From the NCBI GenBank assembly GCA_965197285.1, contig OZ240092.1:2660280-2724279 (forward strand): a stretch of DNA of 64,000 bases, written 5' to 3'. Below, piece by piece: positions 9,640-48,442 of the stretch. The position numbers and the translations under genes are program-made. The stretch's first letter is position 1. Each line of letters starts with the position of its first letter. The notes under the pieces are model-generated. The model saw only the letters and a program-made list of their open reading frames with translations, ran no database searches and had not been told where the DNA came from. The stretch comes from Acidobacteriota bacterium. Its GTDB lineage: Bacteria > Acidobacteriota > UBA6911 > RPQK01 > CBDAPI01.

Positions 9640-9880
9640 GAAGTAATGTTCATTCTGCCCGAGGCCTCTCGGCCTCGGCTATTTCCTGTCGCCCCCTCCG
9701 GGGGCTGGCTGGGATGACGTCATCCCTTCCCGGGGCCTTACGGCCCCGGCTATTCCCTTGTCGCCCCCTCCGGGGGCTGGCTTCAGGCCGCAGAGCGGCC
9801 GAAAGAGAATAGCCGTGGGCGCCAGCCCACGGAAATCTCCGCCGAGCACCAAGCCCTGGAAGGGCGACAGGGATCTTGGG
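9640..9880. repeat. mosaic intergenic repeat, copy A (GC hairpin units plus a conserved ggccgcag-gcggccgaaaga-aatagccgtgggcg-cagcccacggaaatctccg core)
   Basis: About 75-85% identity to 14770-14990, with a partial copy at 45420-45545. It contains two tandem sub-units and several short GC hairpins (gcccccTCCgggggc, ccgtgggc...gcccacgg). Confidence 0.55.
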
Positions 9881-14769: not shown

Positions 14770-14990
14770 TGTTGCCCAAACCTGATTTTTCTGCCGCCCC
14801 CTCCGGGGGCTGCCTTGGAGGACGTCGTCCTGTACCGGGGCCTTGCGGCCCCGGCTATATTCTCACGCCCCCTTCGGGGGCTGTCTTCAGGCCGCAGCGC
14901 GGCCGAAAGAAAATAGCCGTGGGCGTCAGCCCACGGAAATCTCCGTCAATTCTAGAGCCCTGAAGGGGCGACAGAGATTTGGGCGAATTC
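14770..14990. repeat. mosaic intergenic repeat, copy B
   Basis: Aligns with copy A across gccccctccgggggctg, ggggccttgcggccccggctat and ggccgcagcgcggccgaaagaaaatagccgtgggcgtcagcccacggaaatctccg. Confidence 0.55.
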
Positions 14991-17541: not shown

Positions 17542-18132
17542 AAATGCCGCCAAGTGGTCCAACCGATGGGGTCCACCTCTGGCAGCGAACGCAGCGGCCA
17601 GGACGAGCAGGGTTAACTCTTTCCTCATTCTTCCTTCGCGCGGCTCATTCCCCCCTCAGGACACTTTAACTCATACGTCCCGCCCTCGCTTTGGTTTCGG
17701 GGGGTCGACGTTCTGCGTTCCACGTTGGCGCGCTCATGAGAGTGGGCCTCAGGGCCGCGACCGCCACTCTTTCGTCCCGGCCCAGCAACTCGGGGGTCGC
17801 CGCCCCAAGGCGCCTTATAGTTACTAACGATCTATTTTCCAACGATGGATTAGAAATAGTAGCGATTTTCTTTTTTGCTGCTTTTTTCTTTTCTGGGTTG
17901 TGGAAAAAGTTTGCGCTGGGAGCGATCGAGGAACAGATTGCCTCTGTGCAGCACGCGCACCGTGGCGTTACGAATTCAAGGCCCCAGCGTACGAAACGCT
18001 TGGCGGGAGACTTTCGAACGCCACGGTGCACAGACAGCAAACGCATACTCTAGATGCTGTCCTTCGAGGACTCGACTATAAGGGTTGCGCAAGGTCTGGG
18101 CAAGCGTGTGCTGCGCAGAAAGGAGTGGCGCA

Positions 18133-18436
18133 ATGTTAGCCACAGAACAGATCGCAGCATGGGTAGGATTGGATTGGGCCGAAGATCAACATGAGATCCG
18201 ACTGCGGGCCGCCGGCAGTCGGGAAGTAGAGAGGTATCAGGTGCGGCAAGACCCGGAAGAGTTGCACGAATGGGTACGCCAGCTAAGAACCCGTTTTGAG
18301 GGTCGTCCTGTGGTGATTGCCCTGGAGCAAAAGCGGGGAGGGTTGATGGCGGCGCTGATGTGCTATGACTTTTTGCACCTGTACCCGATCAATCCGAAGA
18401 CGGTGGCGAGCTATCGAGAGGCATTTTCACCCTCCG
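18133..18436 (+). CDS. IS110-family transposase, exon 1 (N-terminal DEDD domain)
   Basis: MLATEQIAAWVGLDWAEDQHEI...YPINPKTVASYREAFSPSG matches the IS110 N-terminal signature. RBS aaaggag lies 7 nt upstream. The ORF track extends to 18462 only by reading into the intron. Confidence 0.7.
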
Positions 18437-18969
18437 GTGCGCCGGCGCAAACCGGTGAGTAGCAGAGAGCGAGAGTCTCTCACAGGAAAGGAGTAGCGAA
18501 CCATGCTGACCCCGAGTCATGCGTGTGTACTCGTAAGAGTGCAGGCGAAGCATTGACAGGGGCACGTGCGGGCCAGGTATTGAGCCGCGGAAGGAAAATG
18601 ACTTCGGGGGGCCGACGTAGTCGTAGGATCGGAAGGCAACATGGAACCGTTCGCTAATCGCGAGAACGATTCCGCCCCCGCGTGGTCCCGAGACCCTGTG
18701 CACGTACGGAAGTTGCTTACACGGGAGCCGGGAGATCCCGCCTTTGACCCCAGGGGGATGGCCCCAAGGTCCGCGCTGTGAATCCGAAAGGAGCACGACA
18801 GCGATGCACGGAGGCGGGAAGTCGGACAGGCTGATAGTAGCTGAGAAGCGCTCGAACAAAGACGGCGGTGCGCCGCGGTCGGCGGAGAGGGTGGAGCCAA
18901 GCGGCCTGGCCAAAGGGAATTCGTCCTAGCAAAACAAGTGCCGGACACAGAGCCGGGAGAGGAATCGAT

Positions 18970-20307
18970 ATGGAGGACTCTAAACGGGCACCAAGCGGGA
19001 AATCGCGGACACAGCCAAGAGACCGCACCTACGTCGAAACCGAGGACTTGCAAAGTGCGCTGGAACGGATACGGCAGGTAGCCTGCCGGGATAAGGAGCT
19101 ACGGTTCACGTCGCTCTGGCACCACGTCACTAACATCGATCGACTCCGGCAGGCTTACTTCGGCCTCAAGCGCAATGCCGCACCGGGCGTGGATGGATTG
19201 ACGTGGCAGCAATACGGAGAGAGCCTCGAGGAGAACCTCCAGGATCTATCCGCAAGGCTCAAACGCGGAGCGTACCGAGCCAAGCCGGTTCGGAGGGCCT
19301 ATATACCGAAGGCCGATGGGCGGCAGCGTCCGCTCGGAGTGACTGCATTGGAGGATAAGATCGTCCAGCGGTCTACGGTCCAGGTATTGAACGCCATCTA
19401 CGAAACCGACTTTCTCGGCTTCTCGTATAGTTTCCGCCCGGGGCGCAGTCCACACCATGCGTTGGACGCGCTCTATGTCGGAATCATGCGCAAGCGAGTG
19501 AACTGGGTGCTGGATGCGGACGTTTGTGGGTTTTTCGATGCCATCGACCACAAATGGCTGTTGAAGTTCATCGAGCACAGAATCGCCGATCCACGTGTTA
19601 TCCGCCACCTTAAAAAGTGGCTCAAGGCGGGGATCGTGGAGGATGGGAAGCGAACCGAGATCGAATCCGGTACGCCTCAAGGCGGGAGTGTTTCACCCGT
19701 GTTGGCTAATGTGTACCTTCATTATGTGTTCGATCTATGGGCCGACCAATGGAGACGCAGGCACGCTCGTGGCGATGTAATCATCGTCCGGTTTGCCGAC
19801 GACTTCACAGTGGGTTTCGAGTTTCGTGAAGATGCCGAGCGTTTTCTGGCAGACTTGCGGGACCGGTTCCACACGTTTCACCTGGAACTGCACCCCGACA
19901 AAACGCGCTTGATCGAGTTCGGGCGGTACGCCGCTCGGGATCGCAAGCGCCGTGGAGAAGGGAAGCCCGAGTCTTTCGACTTCCTGGGTTTTACGCACAC
20001 GTGCGACAGAACCCGGAACGGGAGATTCATCGTGCTGCGGCAGACCATGCGGAAGCGCATGCAAGCGAAACTGCGCGAGATCGCTCGCGAGCTTCGGTAT
20101 CGCCTGCATGAACCCGTCCCGGTAGTGGGTCAGTGGTTGCGCAGTGTAGTACAGGGACATTTCCAGTACTATGCCGTACCGCGTAACCATCGCAAGCCGG
20201 CCGCTTTCAAGTATCAGGTCTATCGACTCTGGCTGCGTGCGCTAAGGCGTCGTAGCCAGCGTCATCGGATCACGGAACGTGTCAACAACTTTGAGACACT
20301 TTGGTGA
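18970..20307 (+). CDS. group II intron-encoded reverse transcriptase/maturase (ORF track 18868..20307; likely start MEDSKRAP)
   Basis: RT domains 0-7, including RFADDFTVGF (F/YADD box), and a maturase X domain. No C-terminal HNH/En domain. The last 4 codons and the stop are supplied by the IS3 left inverted repeat. Confidence 0.85.
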   Translation: MEDSKRAPSGKSRTQPRDRTYVETEDLQSALERIRQVACRDKELRFTSLWHHVTNIDRLRQAYFGLKRNAAPGVDGLTWQQYGESLEENLQDLSARLKRGAYRAKPVRRAYIPKADGRQRPLGVTALEDKIVQRSTVQVLNAIYETDFLGFSYSFRPGRSPHHALDALYVGIMRKRVNWVLDADVCGFFDAIDHKWLLKFIEHRIADPRVIRHLKKWLKAGIVEDGKRTEIESGTPQGGSVSPVLANVYLHYVFDLWADQWRRRHARGDVIIVRFADDFTVGFEFREDAERFLADLRDRFHTFHLELHPDKTRLIEFGRYAARDRKRRGEGKPESFDFLGFTHTCDRTRNGRFIVLRQTMRKRMQAKLREIARELRYRLHEPVPVVGQWLRSVVQGHFQYYAVPRNHRKPAAFKYQVYRLWLRALRRRSQRHRITERVNNFETLW

Positions 20308-20328
20308 ATAAATTACTGTAGTTTCATC

Positions 20329-21327
20329 TCAAAAGTTCTCCTTTTCGGGAGGGTTGATCCAGACCGCCTCGGGAAGAGGAGGAGGAACGGGTTTGCCGTT
20401 GGGAAATCTCTCCGGGAAGAGTGCATGGGCGGCCTCCAATGTTTGGGATCGATCGCGACGGGTGGTGATGGCGGTGAGGTAGTGCACATCCGCGGGAGTG
20501 TGCAGGCCGATACCCGAATGGCGATGGTCGCGGTTATACCAATCGAAGAAATCCCGACAGAAGTCTCTGGCTTGCTGAATGGTGCCGAAACGAGCCGGGA
20601 ATTCGGGACGGTACTTGAGGGTCTTGAATTGGGATTCCGAGTAGGGATTGTCGTCACAGACATGAGGCCGAGAGTGAGACTTGGTGACTCCCAGATCGGC
20701 CAGTAGCAAGGCCAGTGCTTTGGAACTCATCGACGAGCCACGATCGGCATGCAGGGTGAGACCACCCGCTACGATCTCCTGCTTGGAGTAGCTCTGGGCG
20801 ATCAAGACCTTGGCCAGGCGGGAGCTTTCCTGGGTGGCCACCATCCAGCCCACCACATAGCGGCTGAAGATGTCCAGGATCACGTAGAGGTAGTAATAGC
20901 TCCATTTGACGGGCCCCTTCAGCTTGGTGATGTCCCACGACCAGCATTGGTTCGGGCCGGTGGCCAGAAGTTCCGGCTTGGAGTATTGGGGATGGCGGCG
21001 CTGGCGACGGCGTTCTCTAACTTCCAGACGTTTGGCCAGAATGCGGTACATGGTTCGAATCGAGCACAAGTATCGCCCTTCGTCCAGCAGCTCCGCCCAT
21101 ACGGCGGCAGGAGCTTTGTCGATAAACTGTCGGCTGTGCAGGACCTCCACAACGGCTTCCCTTTCGGGCGGGCTCAAGGCGCGTGGGGATGCGGCCCGAG
21201 GCCGAGGATCCAGCGCCGGCCGTTCGCGCCGAAGTTTCTCCCGATACAGACTCGATGGCGGCAGATCCAGAGCCTGACAGCCGGCACGGACTCCGTGGGA
21301 TTGTGAGAATCGCAAAGCTTCGTCCAT
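20329..21327 (-). CDS. IS3 family transposase OrfB (DDE integrase)
   Basis: Integrase core motifs (WSWDITKL...HADRGSSMSS...YSESQFKTLKY). Confidence 0.85.
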   Translation of the reverse strand: MDEALRFSQSHGVRAGCQALDLPPSSLYREKLRRERPALDPRPRAASPRALSPPEREAVVEVLHSRQFIDKAPAAVWAELLDEGRYLCSIRTMYRILAKRLEVRERRRQRRHPQYSKPELLATGPNQCWSWDITKLKGPVKWSYYYLYVILDIFSRYVVGWMVATQESSRLAKVLIAQSYSKQEIVAGGLTLHADRGSSMSSKALALLLADLGVTKSHSRPHVCDDNPYSESQFKTLKYRPEFPARFGTIQQARDFCRDFFDWYNRDHRHSGIGLHTPADVHYLTAITTRRDRSQTLEAAHALFPERFPNGKPVPPPLPEAVWINPPEKENF

Positions 21328-21827
21328 CAGCTCTCGTCTCCGTTCTCTTCGCTGCTCGCCAGAGAGATTCCCAACAGTTGCGAGACTTTTTTTTGGAGAT
21401 CCAGCATGGCTTCAAACTTCTCGAGCTTGCGTTTCAGCTTCCGATTCTCAGCCTCCACTTGCCTCAGTTGATGATCCAGAGGATTGACCGGCTTTGCCTT
21501 TCGTCCCCGCTTGCGAGGGGTCAATGCCTGCAGAGTTCCGTGCTCGCGTTGGCGTCGCCAGGTCTGCAGATTCGACCAGTAAAGTCCTTCTCGGCGCAGT
21601 AATGCTCCCACTTCGCCCGACTCTTCGCAGCCATCGGCCTGCTCCAGGACCCGGAGCTTATAGCGGGCTGAAAACCGGCGACGGGTTGCCTTGGCAGGAA
21701 CTTCCGGGTCGGGTCGCGGCAACGCCTTCTCGGGCTCGGTCCGTCCCGCAGCGATTTTGGAGACCTCTCCCCTCCGCTCCGAGGTTTCCAAAATCCTCAG
21801 TTTCTTGTCGCTTCTGTTTTCTATCAT
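21327..21827 (-). CDS. IS3 family transposase OrfA
   Basis: HTH (RRRFSARYKLRVLEQA) and leucine-zipper region. TGATG stop/start overlap with orfB. Confidence 0.8.
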   Translation of the reverse strand: MIENRSDKKLRILETSERRGEVSKIAAGRTEPEKALPRPDPEVPAKATRRRFSARYKLRVLEQADGCEESGEVGALLRREGLYWSNLQTWRRQREHGTLQALTPRKRGRKAKPVNPLDHQLRQVEAENRKLKRKLEKFEAMLDLQKKVSQLLGISLASSEENGDES

Positions 21828-22004
21828 TCTGTAATCCAGCTTCTCGCCCTCTACTCTAATTTAGCCGGGAAGAAGTGTCTCACCATTATTGGCACAGAGG
21901 GTCACTGGAGAGCGGATGAACCGCCTAGCGACAAGATGGCTTCCTGCACTGCGAGTTGTACACCCTTATCCCGAACAGCGACTGCGCGTTATTACCTGAG
22001 GTAA

Positions 22005-22076
22005 GAGCCCAGTGCGGTAGTTCCGCTCGCTGGGATCTGTGCGGGGGGCGATCCGAAAGGATCGTCCCTACCGCGA
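22005..22076 (+). other. group II intron domains V and VI (putative catalytic hairpin and branch-point hairpin)
   Basis: DV is GAGCCCAGUGCGGUAGUUCCGCUCGCUGGGAUCU, 34 nt with an AGC triad and a 3'-side bulge. DVI is GCGGGGGGCGAUCC-GAAA-GGAUCGUCCCU[A]CCGC. The intron then ends ...GAC at 22077. Confidence 0.55.
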
Positions 22077-22077
22077 C

Positions 22078-23039
22078 GTAAGAAGGATGATCCGGAAGAT
22101 TCGGACTTGTTGCTGGAGCTGGTGTACAGACACCGGGATCGATTGCGTTGTTGGAGACCGGAGGCGGCCCAGACCCGGGAGCTGGCGCTGTTGGTGGAGG
22201 GGCGACGCCAGTTGGTGGAGAGGCGCAAAGAACTGGTGCAGCAACTGCGCGGGGTCTTGAAGAGCTACTATCCGCAGCCTTTGCAGTGGTTTGCAAAGTT
22301 GGATGGGCCGCTGGCTCTGGAGTTTTTGAGGCGCTGGCCCACCTTGGAGCAGGCTCGCAAAGTGCGGATCGATGTACTGGGTCGCTGCATGGCACGACAT
22401 CGAGTACGCTGTGCCGAGACGAAGCTGCAAACATTGCTCGAGCAGATCCGTGCCAGTTACCCACTGACCCAGGATGAGGCTCTCATTGGAGCCGGTTCAC
22501 TGAAACTGGTGGGCCTGGTCGAACAGCTCTCGGTTCTGCTGCCGATCATCAAACGCTACGACAACCGCATTGCCACGCTCTTCGCCGAGCATGAAGATGC
22601 CGCTCTGTTTGCAAGCTTCAGCGGAGCCGGGCCGGCTCTGGCTCCTCGCTTGTTGGCGGCCTTCGGGTCGGATCGCAGTCGCTTTGAGGATGCTGAAGAG
22701 GTCCAAAAATGGAGCGGCATCGCTCCCGTAACACGAAAGAGCGGACGAAGTTCTCAGGTGGTCTGGCGTCGAGGCTGTCCCAAGTTTATTCGCCAAACCT
22801 TTCATGAGTTTGCGGCCTGCTCAATTCCGCAATCGTCCTGGGCTCGTGCTTACTACCTGCAGCAACGTCAGCGCGGTCTCAAACACCACGCTGCCGTTCG
22901 ATCTTTAGCTTACAAATGGATTCGCATTCTCTTCCGTTGCTGGATGGATCGAGTCCACTATGACGAGGAACTCTACTGCCGGAGTCTCCAGAGGAGCAAC
23001 TCTCCTCTTGTGGCTCTGATGCAACCGGCTTGTGGATAA
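22078..23039 (+). CDS. IS110-family transposase, exon 2 (C-terminal domain)
   Basis: Coiled-coil linker and IS116/IS110/IS902-type C-terminal domain (SFSGAGPALAPRLLAAFG...RSLAYKWIRILFRCW). Confidence 0.7.
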
Positions 23040-23114
23040 GCTTCAAAAAAAAGGGAGACAATTCTCTTGACTTATGAGCTCAGATGTCTCCCACACCTGA
23101 AACGTGGAACCTCC

Positions 23115-36559: not shown

Positions 36560-38211
36560 CCCGGATTATGCAAGAGATCTAAATTCAAGCGAGATTTGGG
36601 CCCAGAAAAAAGGCCGTAGCTCTCTGATATAAAAGGGTTTAGAGAAACAATGACCCTAAACAGGAGCTACGGCAATGTCAAAAACAGTCTGCCAGAATAC
36701 CCTGCCATTTCATAGCCACAGAAACATCACGGCTCGTTTTGATGGGGGGAGCCTCACTTCCGACGCAGGATGGTTGTTGTTTGGATCCCTGGATCGTCAA
36801 CATCGATTGTGCGAGGGCTTCAGTTCGTGTATTGCGGAAAGTCGAGACCGACGCTACGTTCGTCATGACCTGTTGAAGTTGATCCGACAACGAGTCTTGC
36901 AGATCGTGGCCGGCTACGAAGACTGTAACGACGCCGATACGCTGCGCTCGGATCCGATGCTCAAGACCGTCTGTGATCAGTTGCCAGAGAGCGATCCCGA
37001 TTTGGCCACCCAGCCGACTTTCTCCCGCCTGGAGAACTCCGTCACCAAGAAGGATCTGATGCGTCTGAGCCGGTGGCTGCCAGGCCGTTATGTGCGCTCC
37101 CTGAAGAAGAGACGTCCCAGCAAGATCATCCTGGATCTGGACAGTACCGACGACCACACTCACGGCCAACAGGAGTTCTCCTTCTACCACGGGTATTACC
37201 GAAACCACATTCTGCATCCTTTGCTGATCTTCGATGCCGACACGGGAGACCTGGTCTGTGCCGTGTTGAGACCTGGCAACAAGGGGGCTGCCTCTCACAT
37301 CGTGCCCATTCTGAAGCGAGTCGTGGAGGCCATCCGACAAGCAGTGGGGACGGATGTCGAGATTGAGATTCGGGCCGACAGCGGCTTTGCCACGCCTCGG
37401 CTCTACGAGTTCTGTGAATGTGAAGAGAATAAACTCCAGTATGTCATTGGGTTAAGTCGAAACCCTCGCCTGCAGCGAGTGGTCGAGCCCCTGCTGGATT
37501 CGACTCGGCTGAGGTTCCTTGAGCTGGAGGAAAAACAGCGTCAGTTTGACGAGTTTCTTTATCGAGCCCACAGCTGGGATCGATCCCGTCGCGTCATTGT
37601 CAAAGTGGAGGTCGATCAGCGTGGCATCAATCGTCGCTTTGTAGTTACCAACCGGGACGATCTCTGCTCCCAATCACTTTATGACCACTACACAAACCGA
37701 GGGCAGACCGAGAACTTCATCAAGGCCTTCAAGAATCATCTGAGCATGGACCGACTCAGCTGTCATCGATTCCTGGCCAATCAGTTTCGACTCCTCCTGC
37801 ATGCACTGGCTTACCAGATGTTCGTGCGCCTGCGCGACTATCTTCACGGAACCCCCTGGCACAAGCTCGAAATCGAAACCTTACGTCGTCGGGTCCTCAA
37901 GATTGGGGCCCGGATCCGACAAACCACTCGACGCATCTGGGTCCATCTTTCCTCAGCCTTCCCCGAACAACCCCTCTTCCACCTCGTCTTGAGTCGCCTG
38001 AACTCCAGTTAGCTTTTCCCAGCTCCCCCGAAAAACCGCTTCCGACACTCATCCAGGCCCAGATCTGTCTGAAATTCACTCCCCAAACCACTCAAACGCC
38101 TCGCCAACCCATATTCTTCGCAAATCCGCCTGTCACACCTGCCCGCTTCCGAGTTGGGCCACTTCTCGAGTCGTTTTTCAACACCGAACTACGGTTCTTG
38201 CATAATCCGGG
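36560..38211 (+). mobile_element. IS1380-like insertion sequence, copy 1 (1652 bp) with 4-bp CTAG target duplication
   Basis: Inverted repeats CCCGGATTATGCAAGA...TCTTGCATAATCCGGG. CTAG at 36556-36559 and 38212-38215. Confidence 0.8.
36675..38012 (+). CDS. DDE transposase, IS1380-family-like (445 aa)
   Basis: N-terminal ...GGSLTSDAGWLLF...QIVAGYEDCNDADTLRSDP motif. The 445-aa size and the element's CC termini fit IS1380/IS4-like elements. Confidence 0.75.
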   Translation: MSKTVCQNTLPFHSHRNITARFDGGSLTSDAGWLLFGSLDRQHRLCEGFSSCIAESRDRRYVRHDLLKLIRQRVLQIVAGYEDCNDADTLRSDPMLKTVCDQLPESDPDLATQPTFSRLENSVTKKDLMRLSRWLPGRYVRSLKKRRPSKIILDLDSTDDHTHGQQEFSFYHGYYRNHILHPLLIFDADTGDLVCAVLRPGNKGAASHIVPILKRVVEAIRQAVGTDVEIEIRADSGFATPRLYEFCECEENKLQYVIGLSRNPRLQRVVEPLLDSTRLRFLELEEKQRQFDEFLYRAHSWDRSRRVIVKVEVDQRGINRRFVVTNRDDLCSQSLYDHYTNRGQTENFIKAFKNHLSMDRLSCHRFLANQFRLLLHALAYQMFVRLRDYLHGTPWHKLEIETLRRRVLKIGARIRQTTRRIWVHLSSAFPEQPLFHLVLSRLNSS

Positions 38212-46789: not shown

Positions 46790-48442
46790 CCCGGATTATG
46801 CAAGAACCGTAGTTCGGTGTTGAAAAACGACTCGAGAAGTGGCCCAACTCGGAAGCGGGCAGGTGTGACAGGCGGATTTGCGAAGAATATGGGTTGGCGA
46901 GGCGTTTGAGTGGTTTGGGGAGTGAATTTCAGACAGATCTGGGCCTGGATGAGTGTCGGAAGCGGTTTTTCGGGGGAGCTGGGAAAAGCTAACTGGAGTT
47001 CAGGCGACTCAAGACGAGGTGGAAGAGGGGTTGTTCGGGGAAGGCTGAGGAAAGATGGACCCAGATGCGTCGAGTGGTTTGTCGGATCCGGGCCCCAATC
47101 TTGAGGACCCGACGACGTAAGGTTTCGATTTCGAGCTTGTGCCAGGGGGTTCCGTGAAGATAGTCGCGCAGGCGCACGAACATCTGGTAAGCCAGTGCAT
47201 GCAGGAGGAGTCGAAACTGATTGGCCAGGAATCGATGACAGCTGAGTCGGTCCATGCTCAGATGATTCTTGAAGGCCTTGATGAAGTTCTCGGTCTGCCC
47301 TCGGTTTGTGTAGTGGTCATAAAGTGATTGGGAGCAGAGATCGTCCCGGTTGGTAACTACAAAGCGACGATTGATGCCACGCTGATCGACCTCCACTTTG
47401 ACAATGACGCGACGGGATCGATCCCAGCTGTGGGCTCGATAAAGAAACTCGTCAAACTGACGCTGTTTTTCCTCCAGCTCAAGGAACCTCAGCCGAGTCG
47501 AATCCAGCAGGGGCTCGACCACTCGCTGCAGGCGAGGGTTTCGACTTAACCCAATGACATACTGGAGTTTATTCTCTTCACATTCACAGAACTCGTAGAG
47601 CCGAGGCGTGGCAAAGCCGCTGTCGGCCCGAATCTCAATCTCGACTCCCGGCCCCACTGCTTGTCGGATGGCCTCCACGACTCGCTTCAGAATGGGCACG
47701 ATGTGAGAGGCAGCCCCCTTGTTGCCAGGTCTCAACACGGCACAGACCAGGTCGCCCGTGTCGGCATCGAAGATCAGCAAAGGATGCAGAATGTGGTTTC
47801 GGTAATACCCGTGGTAGAAGGAGAACTCCTGCTGACCGTGAGTGTGGTCGTCGGTACTGTCCAGATCCAGGATGATCTTGCTGGGACGTCTCTTCTTCAG
47901 GGAGCGCACATAACGGCCTAGCAGCCACTGGCTCAGACGCATCAGATCCTTCTTGGTGACGGAGTTCTCCAGGCGGGAGAAAGTCGGCTGGGTGGCCAAA
48001 TCGGGATCGCTCTCTGGCAACTGATCACAGACTGTCTTGAGCATCGGATCCGAGCGCAGCGTATCGGCGTCATTACAGTCTTCGTAGCCGGCCACGATCT
48101 GCAAGACTCGTTGTCGGATCAACTTCAACAGGTCATGACGAACGTAGCGTCGGTCTCGACTTTCCGCAATACACGAACTGAAGCCCTCGCACAATCGATG
48201 TTGACGATCCAGGGATCCAAACAACAACCATCCTGCGTCGGAAGTGAGGCTCCCTCCATCAAAACGCGTCGTGATCTTTCTGTGGCTGTGAAATGGCAGG
48301 GTATTCTGGCAGACTGTTTTTGACATTGCCGTAGCTCCTGTTTAGGGTCTTTGTTTCTCTAAACCCTTTTATATCAGAGGGCTACGGCTTTTTCCTGGAG
48401 CCAGAATCTCACTCGGATTCAGATCTTTTGCATAATCCGGGC
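46790..48442 (-). mobile_element. IS1380-like insertion sequence, copy 2 (inverted relative to copy 1) with CTAG target duplication
   Basis: Same inverted repeats as copy 1. CTAG at 46786-46789 and about 48443-48446. Transposase about 98% identical to copy 1. Confidence 0.8.
46989..48326 (-). CDS. DDE transposase, IS1380-family-like
   Basis: 445 aa. Differs from copy 1 at a handful of residues (KITTRF, QWLLGRY, GPGVEIE). Confidence 0.75.
   Translation of the reverse strand: MSKTVCQNTLPFHSHRKITTRFDGGSLTSDAGWLLFGSLDRQHRLCEGFSSCIAESRDRRYVRHDLLKLIRQRVLQIVAGYEDCNDADTLRSDPMLKTVCDQLPESDPDLATQPTFSRLENSVTKKDLMRLSQWLLGRYVRSLKKRRPSKIILDLDSTDDHTHGQQEFSFYHGYYRNHILHPLLIFDADTGDLVCAVLRPGNKGAASHIVPILKRVVEAIRQAVGPGVEIEIRADSGFATPRLYEFCECEENKLQYVIGLSRNPRLQRVVEPLLDSTRLRFLELEEKQRQFDEFLYRAHSWDRSRRVIVKVEVDQRGINRRFVVTNRDDLCSQSLYDHYTNRGQTENFIKAFKNHLSMDRLSCHRFLANQFRLLLHALAYQMFVRLRDYLHGTPWHKLEIETLRRRVLKIGARIRQTTRRIWVHLSSAFPEQPLFHLVLSRLNSS

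Follow-up and report, generated by a model that had tools for sequence, protein, structure and literature searches.

Does the DNA that splits an IS110-family transposase gene at positions 18437–22077 of the window (the whole stretch analysed here, 64,000 nt of an Acidobacteriota bacterium, contig OZ240092.1, positions 2,660,280 to 2,724,279) behave, in its sequence, as an intron whose precise removal gives the gene back? A sequence-only reading of the window had called an intron over this interval and had placed both of its ends to the nucleotide. It is highly probable that 18437–22077 is a group II intron that retrohomed into the IS110 transposase gene and was later hit by an IS3-family element, and that its precise excision restores the reading frame. 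The window belongs to a closed 5.75-Mb genome (G000), which was compared with the congeneric sister genomes G002, G003, G004 and G007. Features lie on the forward strand unless stated otherwise.

Exon 1 ends ..TTT TCA CCC TCC G at 18436, the intron starts GTGCG at 18437–18441 and ends ..CCGCGAC at 22077, and exon 2 starts GT AAG AAG GAT GAT at 22078, in each case with the letters claimed beforehand. In 14 intron-free IS110 copies of G000 the end of exon 1 directly adjoins the start of exon 2. This intron-free junction is identical to the joined exons of the window over 41 nt, which is far beyond chance, and it reads ..CACCCTCCG/GTAAGAAGG.. without a gap, the same as exon 1 (to 18436) followed by exon 2 (from 22078). 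The empty copies thus bear out a boundary call at nucleotide level, and confirm that the intron is inserted in the IS110 transposase gene at the called position and that its removal restores the gene letter for letter. The ends have the group II form of GUGYG at the 5′ side and AY at the 3′ side (GUGCG; ..GAC at 22075–22077), the same ends are found at all other copies, and at other sites in G000, G002, G003, G004 and G007 identical intron ends are bordered by unrelated DNA. The sequence-only reading needs correction in the length of the intron: the boundaries stand, but the 3641 nt between them consist of an intron of 2009 nt proper, a nested IS3-family element of 1629 bp and a 3-bp duplication.

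The transposase is restored at the protein level as well. Exon 1 (18133–18436) holds codons 1–101 and the first base of Gly102, and includes two residues of the DEDD domain, the first D and the E. Exon 2 (22078–23039) provides the remainder of Gly102 up to residue 421 and the stop codon, and contains the Transposase_20 domain together with the third and fourth D, as placed by alignment. The joined exons form a stop-free frame of 421 aa, in which the proposed in-frame join G/GT does encode a glycine, Gly102. Seven intron-free copies encode an uninterrupted 421-aa protein, and the joined window protein differs from one of these copies (L001) at two residues, 216 and 264. The conserved transposase segment expected at the join, CACCCTCCG/GTAAGAAGG, is recovered within one continuous match to DEDD_Tnp_IS110 (PF01548, 81.7 bits, profile positions 1–155 of 155 in a single stretch); exon 1 alone covers profile positions 1–88 and exon 2 alone 106–155. 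The joined protein also matches Transposase_20 (PF02371, 54 bits) and NF033542 (154.3 bits, cut-off 140). Alignment with homologs of 88, 53, 49 and 27 % identity contains no insertion or deletion at the join, and the pattern ..F-x-x-S/A-G-x-K-D-D-x-x-D-A/S.. is conserved across them. D106 and D109, which by alignment are probably the third and fourth acidic (catalytic) residues, follow the join in Gly102 by four and seven codons. A phmmer search of the joined transposase against the PDB gave only spurious coiled-coil matches to mL86, leaving the catalytic residues unmapped on a structure. Without splicing, the frame stops at the TAG at 18460–18462, 26 nt into the intron (..PAQTGE and stop), just as had been read from the sequence.

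The interval also has the RNA structure of a group II intron. The domain I core (18472–18696) matches Rfam RF02005 (group-II-D1D4-6, covering D1–D4) from end to end, scoring 174.9 bits where the gathering score is 49 (E 6e-51). The minimum free energy fold of intron nt 1–539 (z = −2.1) is not informative for domain I architecture. At the 3′ side, 21996–22077 folds into two hairpins (−45.8 kcal/mol, z = −5.6). The first is domain V (DV, 22005–22037), of 33 nt, with an AGC triad, a 2-nt UC bulge, a 4-bp upper helix and a 5-nt loop. The second is domain VI (DVI), for which a GAAA loop and a bulged A had been proposed; the fold gives 22040–22075, with the GAAA loop, a UA bulge and a candidate branch-point A at 22070, 7 nt before 22077. 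Covariation was examined in the homologous DV/DVI region of nine related introns from six genomes, with pairs counted on the window structure. Over both domains 99.6 % of cells are paired and nine pairs have changed on both sides; in a control in which the 3′ partner was slid by 1–3 columns, 38–46 % are paired. Both-side changes affect 5 of the 13 pairs of domain V (99.1 % of cells paired) and 4 of the 15 pairs of domain VI (100 %), and in each of the nine introns the conserved sequence breaks off exactly behind GAC. No better DV/DVI candidate was found elsewhere, and the called hairpins are those that covary across the nine. EBS3, delta-delta′ and gamma-gamma′ were not located in the intron.

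Recognition of the target by exon-binding sites (EBS) of the intron and intron-binding sites (IBS) of the exon can be read directly at the end of exon 1. EBS2 (GAAAAUG, 18594–18600) pairs at 7 of 7 positions with IBS2 (CAUUUUC, exon positions −15 to −9, 18422–18428), and EBS1 (CGUAGG, 18622–18627) at 5 of 6 with IBS1 (CCUCCG, −6 to −1, 18431–18436). A check of EBS/IBS pairing had been suggested for this end of exon 1, and the last 15 nt contain both pairings. At the cognate sites, outside IS110, EBS1 pairs 6/6 with CCUACG, and EBS2 pairing is retained, with wobbles, at four other insertion sites. The 5′ flanks at unrelated sites in G000, G002, G003 and G007 end (A/U)UUUU(C/U)A(C/U)C(C/U)UACG, and the 3′ flanks there start with G, except at the site on contig C51 of G002, which starts with C. 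Judged by its letters, the IS110 site is a near-cognate copy of this usual target, (A/U)UUUU(C/U)A(C/U)C(C/U)UACG/G. Rfam alignments of relatives give EBS1 loop and 5′ exon end as GCACAU/GUGUGC in G024, AACCCC/GGGGUU in G025 and AGUCCC/GGGACU in G031; EBS1 and IBS1 thus covary in four intron lineages, and the 5′ exon ends of these three relatives differ from the SG/K site sequence of IS110, so that no lineage dedicated to IS110 is proposed. A natural control is provided by G002, where the identical intron occurs alongside numerous IS110 copies of 88 % identity to that of the window. The IS110 site of G002 reads CCG UCG G, not CCC UCC G, so that CGUCGG has three mismatches to EBS1, and the full-length IS110 matches in G002 are all uninterrupted.

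Several points weigh against this interpretation. RF00029, the Rfam model of DV/DVI, has no match on the window even at E ≤ 1, and domain V is slightly non-canonical, with G·A at the triad G, a 5-nt loop and a length of 33 nt. The missing match was set aside as evidence against the hairpins: the homologous DV/DVI of relatives do align to RF00029, two of them just reaching its gathering score (40.8–40.9 versus 40) where that of the window falls below reporting, and the covariation is strong. In each of the nine related introns the triad G (22007/22035) is opposite an A where a U is usual, and RF00029 marks this as non-canonical; the DV loop has 5 nt in three of the nine (window included) and 4 nt in six. 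At the IS110 site EBS1/IBS1 has a U·C mismatch at −3, and a gap of 2 nt separates IBS2 from IBS1. All seven intron copies carried by IS110 are disrupted or truncated, and such copies may be dead. For RmInt1, the analogue that has been studied best, just 0.07 % exon ligation is reported in vivo (PMC3035460). Lastly, the DNA comparison leaves the register ambiguous: because GT begins both the intron and exon 2, registers 0, +1 and +2 all fit, with an unchanged ligated product in all three.

Splice sites shifted by +1 or +2 nt (UGCG...GACG or GCG...ACGU) would accordingly be compatible with the intron-free copies, and an assembled contig that joins 18436 to 22078 was reported with ‘both = 2’. Such a shift is nevertheless very improbable. 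Only in register 0 are the canonical GUGYG and AY ends obtained and the branch A placed 7 nt from the intron end, and the RF00029 alignment of the relatives terminates on ..GAC. In addition, the 3′ exons at other sites start GG.., GGC.. or CG.., which rules out +2, and +1 at the G002 site.

The nested element accounts for the excess length of the interval. Compared with intact copies, the window intron is identical over nt 1–1836 and 1837–2009, and the IS3-family element (20273–21901, minus strand, 1629 bp; orfA 21327–21827, orfB 20329–21327) is inserted after intron nt 1836, in that portion of domain IV which holds the open reading frame (ORF). It stands between the two copies of a target-site duplication (TSD), TCA, at 20270–20272 and 21902–21904, and matches NF033516 (177.3 bits, cut-off 160) and Pfam rve and HTH_Tnp_1. 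The genome has 12 near-identical copies of it, with a 3-bp TSD in 10 of the 11 for which the two ends could be paired. The insertion divides the gene of the intron-encoded protein (IEP), a reverse transcriptase (RT)/maturase, into a truncated ORF (18970–20307, with a presumed ATG at 18970) of 435 native residues, 10 IS-encoded residues and a stop (20305–20307), and a detached 3′ end (21902–21999) which, from comparison with intact copies, comprises the last 30 codons and the TGA at 21997–21999. The intact IEP has 465 aa from the presumed ATG, matches TIGR04416 (344.7 bits, cut-off 300) and Pfam RVT_1, and has no Pfam HNH match. Since the last 30 maturase residues are removed, splicing of the window copy would depend on protein made by other copies; at least five intact IEP ORFs are present elsewhere in G000, and we infer that their maturase could complement the window copy in trans.

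A second intron copy, at G000 1940947–1937307, carries an independent IS3 insertion (1937476–1939103) 6–8 nt from the insertion point in the window, in the opposite orientation and with the TSD GAG. Of the 12 IS3 copies, about 5 are embedded in IS110 or intron sequence, which could reflect a target preference of IS3 or just a safe haven.

Intact 2009-nt copies of the intron lie head to tail on the minus strand of G000 (160426–158418 and 158417–156409), and identical intron copies occur in the four sister genomes. Tandem arrays share the junction ..CGCGAC/GTGCG: G000 and G004 each have two full copies, G003 has an ORF-less unit together with a full one, and G002 has three ORF-less units of 750 nt (G002:C51:191269-193518). 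The ORF-less derivative of G002 joins nt 1–646 to 1906–2009 (750 nt, at least seven copies), and that of G003 joins nt 1–666 to 1891–2009 (785 nt, at least five copies). As these derivatives, which lack nt 647–1905 or 667–1890, are multi-copy, the region hit by IS3 is dispensable for the RNA, and mobilisation by a maturase acting in trans is implied for this lineage.

From these data a most likely history of the locus can be proposed. An intron with its RT/maturase would have retrohomed, guided by RNA, into codons 97–102 of the IS110 transposase gene, four codons upstream of the putative third catalytic Asp. Pairing of EBS2 with IBS2 (7 bp) and of EBS1 with IBS1 (5 of 6 bp) would have served to recognise the site, and the codon usage of the IS110 of G000 may have created this near-cognate site. 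The invaded gene would then need splicing to yield transposase: precise excision of GUGCG...GAC would join G/GT and recreate the 421-aa frame of the intron-free copies, and the unspliced product would end after 109 residues, with the first two catalytic residues only. IS3 would later have hit the 3′ end of the maturase, leaving the ribozyme parts (domains I–III, V and VI) identical to those of intact copies. Because these parts are untouched and IS3 lies in a segment absent from the ORF-less derivatives, the RNA could in principle still fold. Retrohoming is the presumed route of entry, and any actual splicing is likewise presumptive.

Assembled contigs from four sequencing runs were compared with the locus. 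The exact joint from 18436 to 22078 (GT..AC) occurs in one RNA contig (run X2) and in one run of unrecorded type (X15), and the IS3-free intron (joint 20269 to 21902) is present in all four runs. The joined contigs are no evidence for splicing, since the 14 intron-free copies in the genomic DNA have the same letters around this junction and DNA may be carried over into RNA libraries. Among the contigs of the four runs, no joint of the lariat type was reported. The chance is only just below even that the boundaries are right but that the window copy no longer splices, the intron being inert and the IS110 copy a pseudogene that is, at most, moved by the transposase of the seven intact copies. 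An inert intron would agree with the loss of the last 30 IEP residues, with an antisense IS3 of 1.6 kb in domain IV, and with the low exon ligation of RmInt1 even when that intron is intact. Likewise, every IS110-borne intron copy is disrupted by IS3 or IS1380 or is truncated: of the seven, two have IS3 (that of the window and the one at 1940947), four have IS1380, and one is truncated at its 5′ end. The insertion point of IS1380 in the intron is identical in two copies at different loci (c2058987 and c2756075), which suggests that composites are copied as units, with no need for splicing. However, the ribozyme domains share 100 % identity with their counterparts in intact copies, the insertion falls in a region absent from the mobile ORF-less derivatives, intact IEP ORFs remain elsewhere in the genome, and the exons are still open, with two amino-acid differences from the intron-free copy L001.

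The IS1380-family element is also present in the window outside the transposase gene, at 36561–38210 and at about 46791–48400, with the inverted repeat CCCGGATTATGCAAGA and a 450-aa transposase (NF033539, 376 bits). Genome-wide it has about 164 BLAST matches of more than 1400 bp, and it interrupts four intron copies other than that of the window. At G000 2756075–2759739, exon 1 stands 5′ of the intron and unrelated DNA (CCAGGAACCC..) follows ..GAC, which points to a rearrangement at the intron's 3′ end; the same junction is a loose end in run X15.

The host element extends over 17815–23092, its ends being placed where about 18 genomic copies cease to agree, and, once the intron is subtracted, is about 1.64 kb long. 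DNA contigs have loose ends at 23094/23095, and the right end is uncertain by 2–4 nt. About 25 copies or fragments of this IS110-family element are present in G000. The window copy is inserted in a REP-like target, ..GTCGCCGCCCCAAGGCGCC^TCCC.., and every copy lies between ..AAGGCGCC and TCCC(G/A)C.. of the REP-like repeat; no target duplication was seen in a comparison of all copies at their flanks. The shared insertion point, ..GTCGCCGCCCCAAGGCGCC^TCCCGCGTCGCC.., often lies inside arrays of that repeat (17760–17814 and 23089–23100 in the window). The 5′ non-coding region of 318 nt (17815–18132) is common to all IS110 copies and is a candidate bridge-RNA region; it has no Rfam match. An AT-rich stretch at 17820–17905 is the left end of IS110 and not a separate element. 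Two IS110 subfamilies differ by 4 nt at about 17915–17935 (CTGGG..GGAACAG versus CCGGG..GGATTTG) and share one flanking target. If the 5′ region encodes a bridge RNA, these differences might fall in its guide loop.

The subfamilies bear on how the intron reached this particular copy. It is possible, though somewhat less likely than not, that the intron arrived with an already invaded IS110, by transposition or gene conversion, with no homing into the window copy itself. In favour of this, two loci share both the intron and an identical IS1380 insertion, and the intron is present in four of the six subfamily-A IS110 copies listed. Against this, the intron is also found in a subfamily-B copy (4902884), which calls for at least two entries or for recombination, and the IS3 insertion in the window is shared by no other copy.

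A more elaborate scenario, which we regard as unlikely, is that, in a genome laden with IS elements, synonymous changes from CCG UCG to CCC UCC in two IS110 codons made the near-cognate homing site, that the intron now acts as a brake on the RNA-guided IS110 recombinase, and that the composites, intron and nested IS included, still spread by transposase supplied in trans together with bridge RNA. Under this scenario IS3 would have a preferred target in the 3′ end of the maturase, as judged from its having struck there twice independently, at points no more than 8 nt apart.

Apart from these elements, the window contains two matches to the Acido-Lenti-1 sRNA (9659–9706 and 14889–14936; 39–41 bits, gathering score 37). 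The runs that contain the window are mostly sponge metatranscriptomes and metagenomes, suggesting a sponge-associated, acidobacterium-like host.

Group II introns that reside in the transposase gene of an IS are already known. In Sinorhizobium meliloti, RmInt1 of ISRm2011-2 is likewise a mobile group II intron that targets a multi-copy IS transposase gene (PMC3035460, PMC4238363), and in both RmInt1 and the window intron the target is recognised by EBS/IBS pairing. The IEP of RmInt1 is described as having no endonuclease domain (PMC4075523), which resembles the lack of a Pfam HNH match in the IEP of the window lineage. The systems differ in the host, which here is a DEDD, RNA-guided IS110 and thus of another IS family, and in the target, since the IS site here is near-cognate, with a single mismatch in IBS1, and the sites that are cognate are found away from the IS. 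The window intron is moreover of the Rfam D1D4-6 type, and the copy is itself interrupted by IS3. RmInt1 is thought to restrain its host element, ISRm2011-2 (PMC3035460, PMC4238363).

The tandem arrays have a counterpart in EcKTE56.groEL, an intron of subgroup IIB1 that integrates head to tail by using the first G of the resident intron as IBS3, as was shown in Escherichia coli assays at the groEL stop codon (PMC12584367). The same type of junction, ..GAC/GUGCG, occurs naturally in G000, G002, G003 and G004, and the arrays appear to fit the tandem-integration mechanism of that intron. They differ in being fixed genomic copies, including three ORF-less units in a row, and are unrelated to the IS110 site.

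For the host element the closest reference is IS621, an IS110-family recombinase guided by a bridge RNA. The window element resembles IS110 elements of the IS621 type in having DEDD_Tnp_IS110 and Transposase_20 domains, no visible target duplication, a REP-like site specificity and a long 5′ non-coding region. In contrast to them, its gene is split by an intron, and its bridge RNA is so far a candidate region.

These results change how the locus should be annotated. The ORFs at 18133–18462 and 22107–23039 together make up a single IS110 transposase gene. Between them, the RT ORF belongs to the intron and not to a retron or defence system. The locus also offers a clean natural dataset for the target rules of group II introns: the same intron occupies at least six different sites across five genomes, with ORF-less and tandem derivatives, one near-cognate site has a defined mismatch, and the corresponding IS110 site of a sister genome has three mismatches, with its full-length matches uninterrupted. 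Should splicing prove to occur, this would be an example of an intron gating the expression of a bridge-RNA recombinase.

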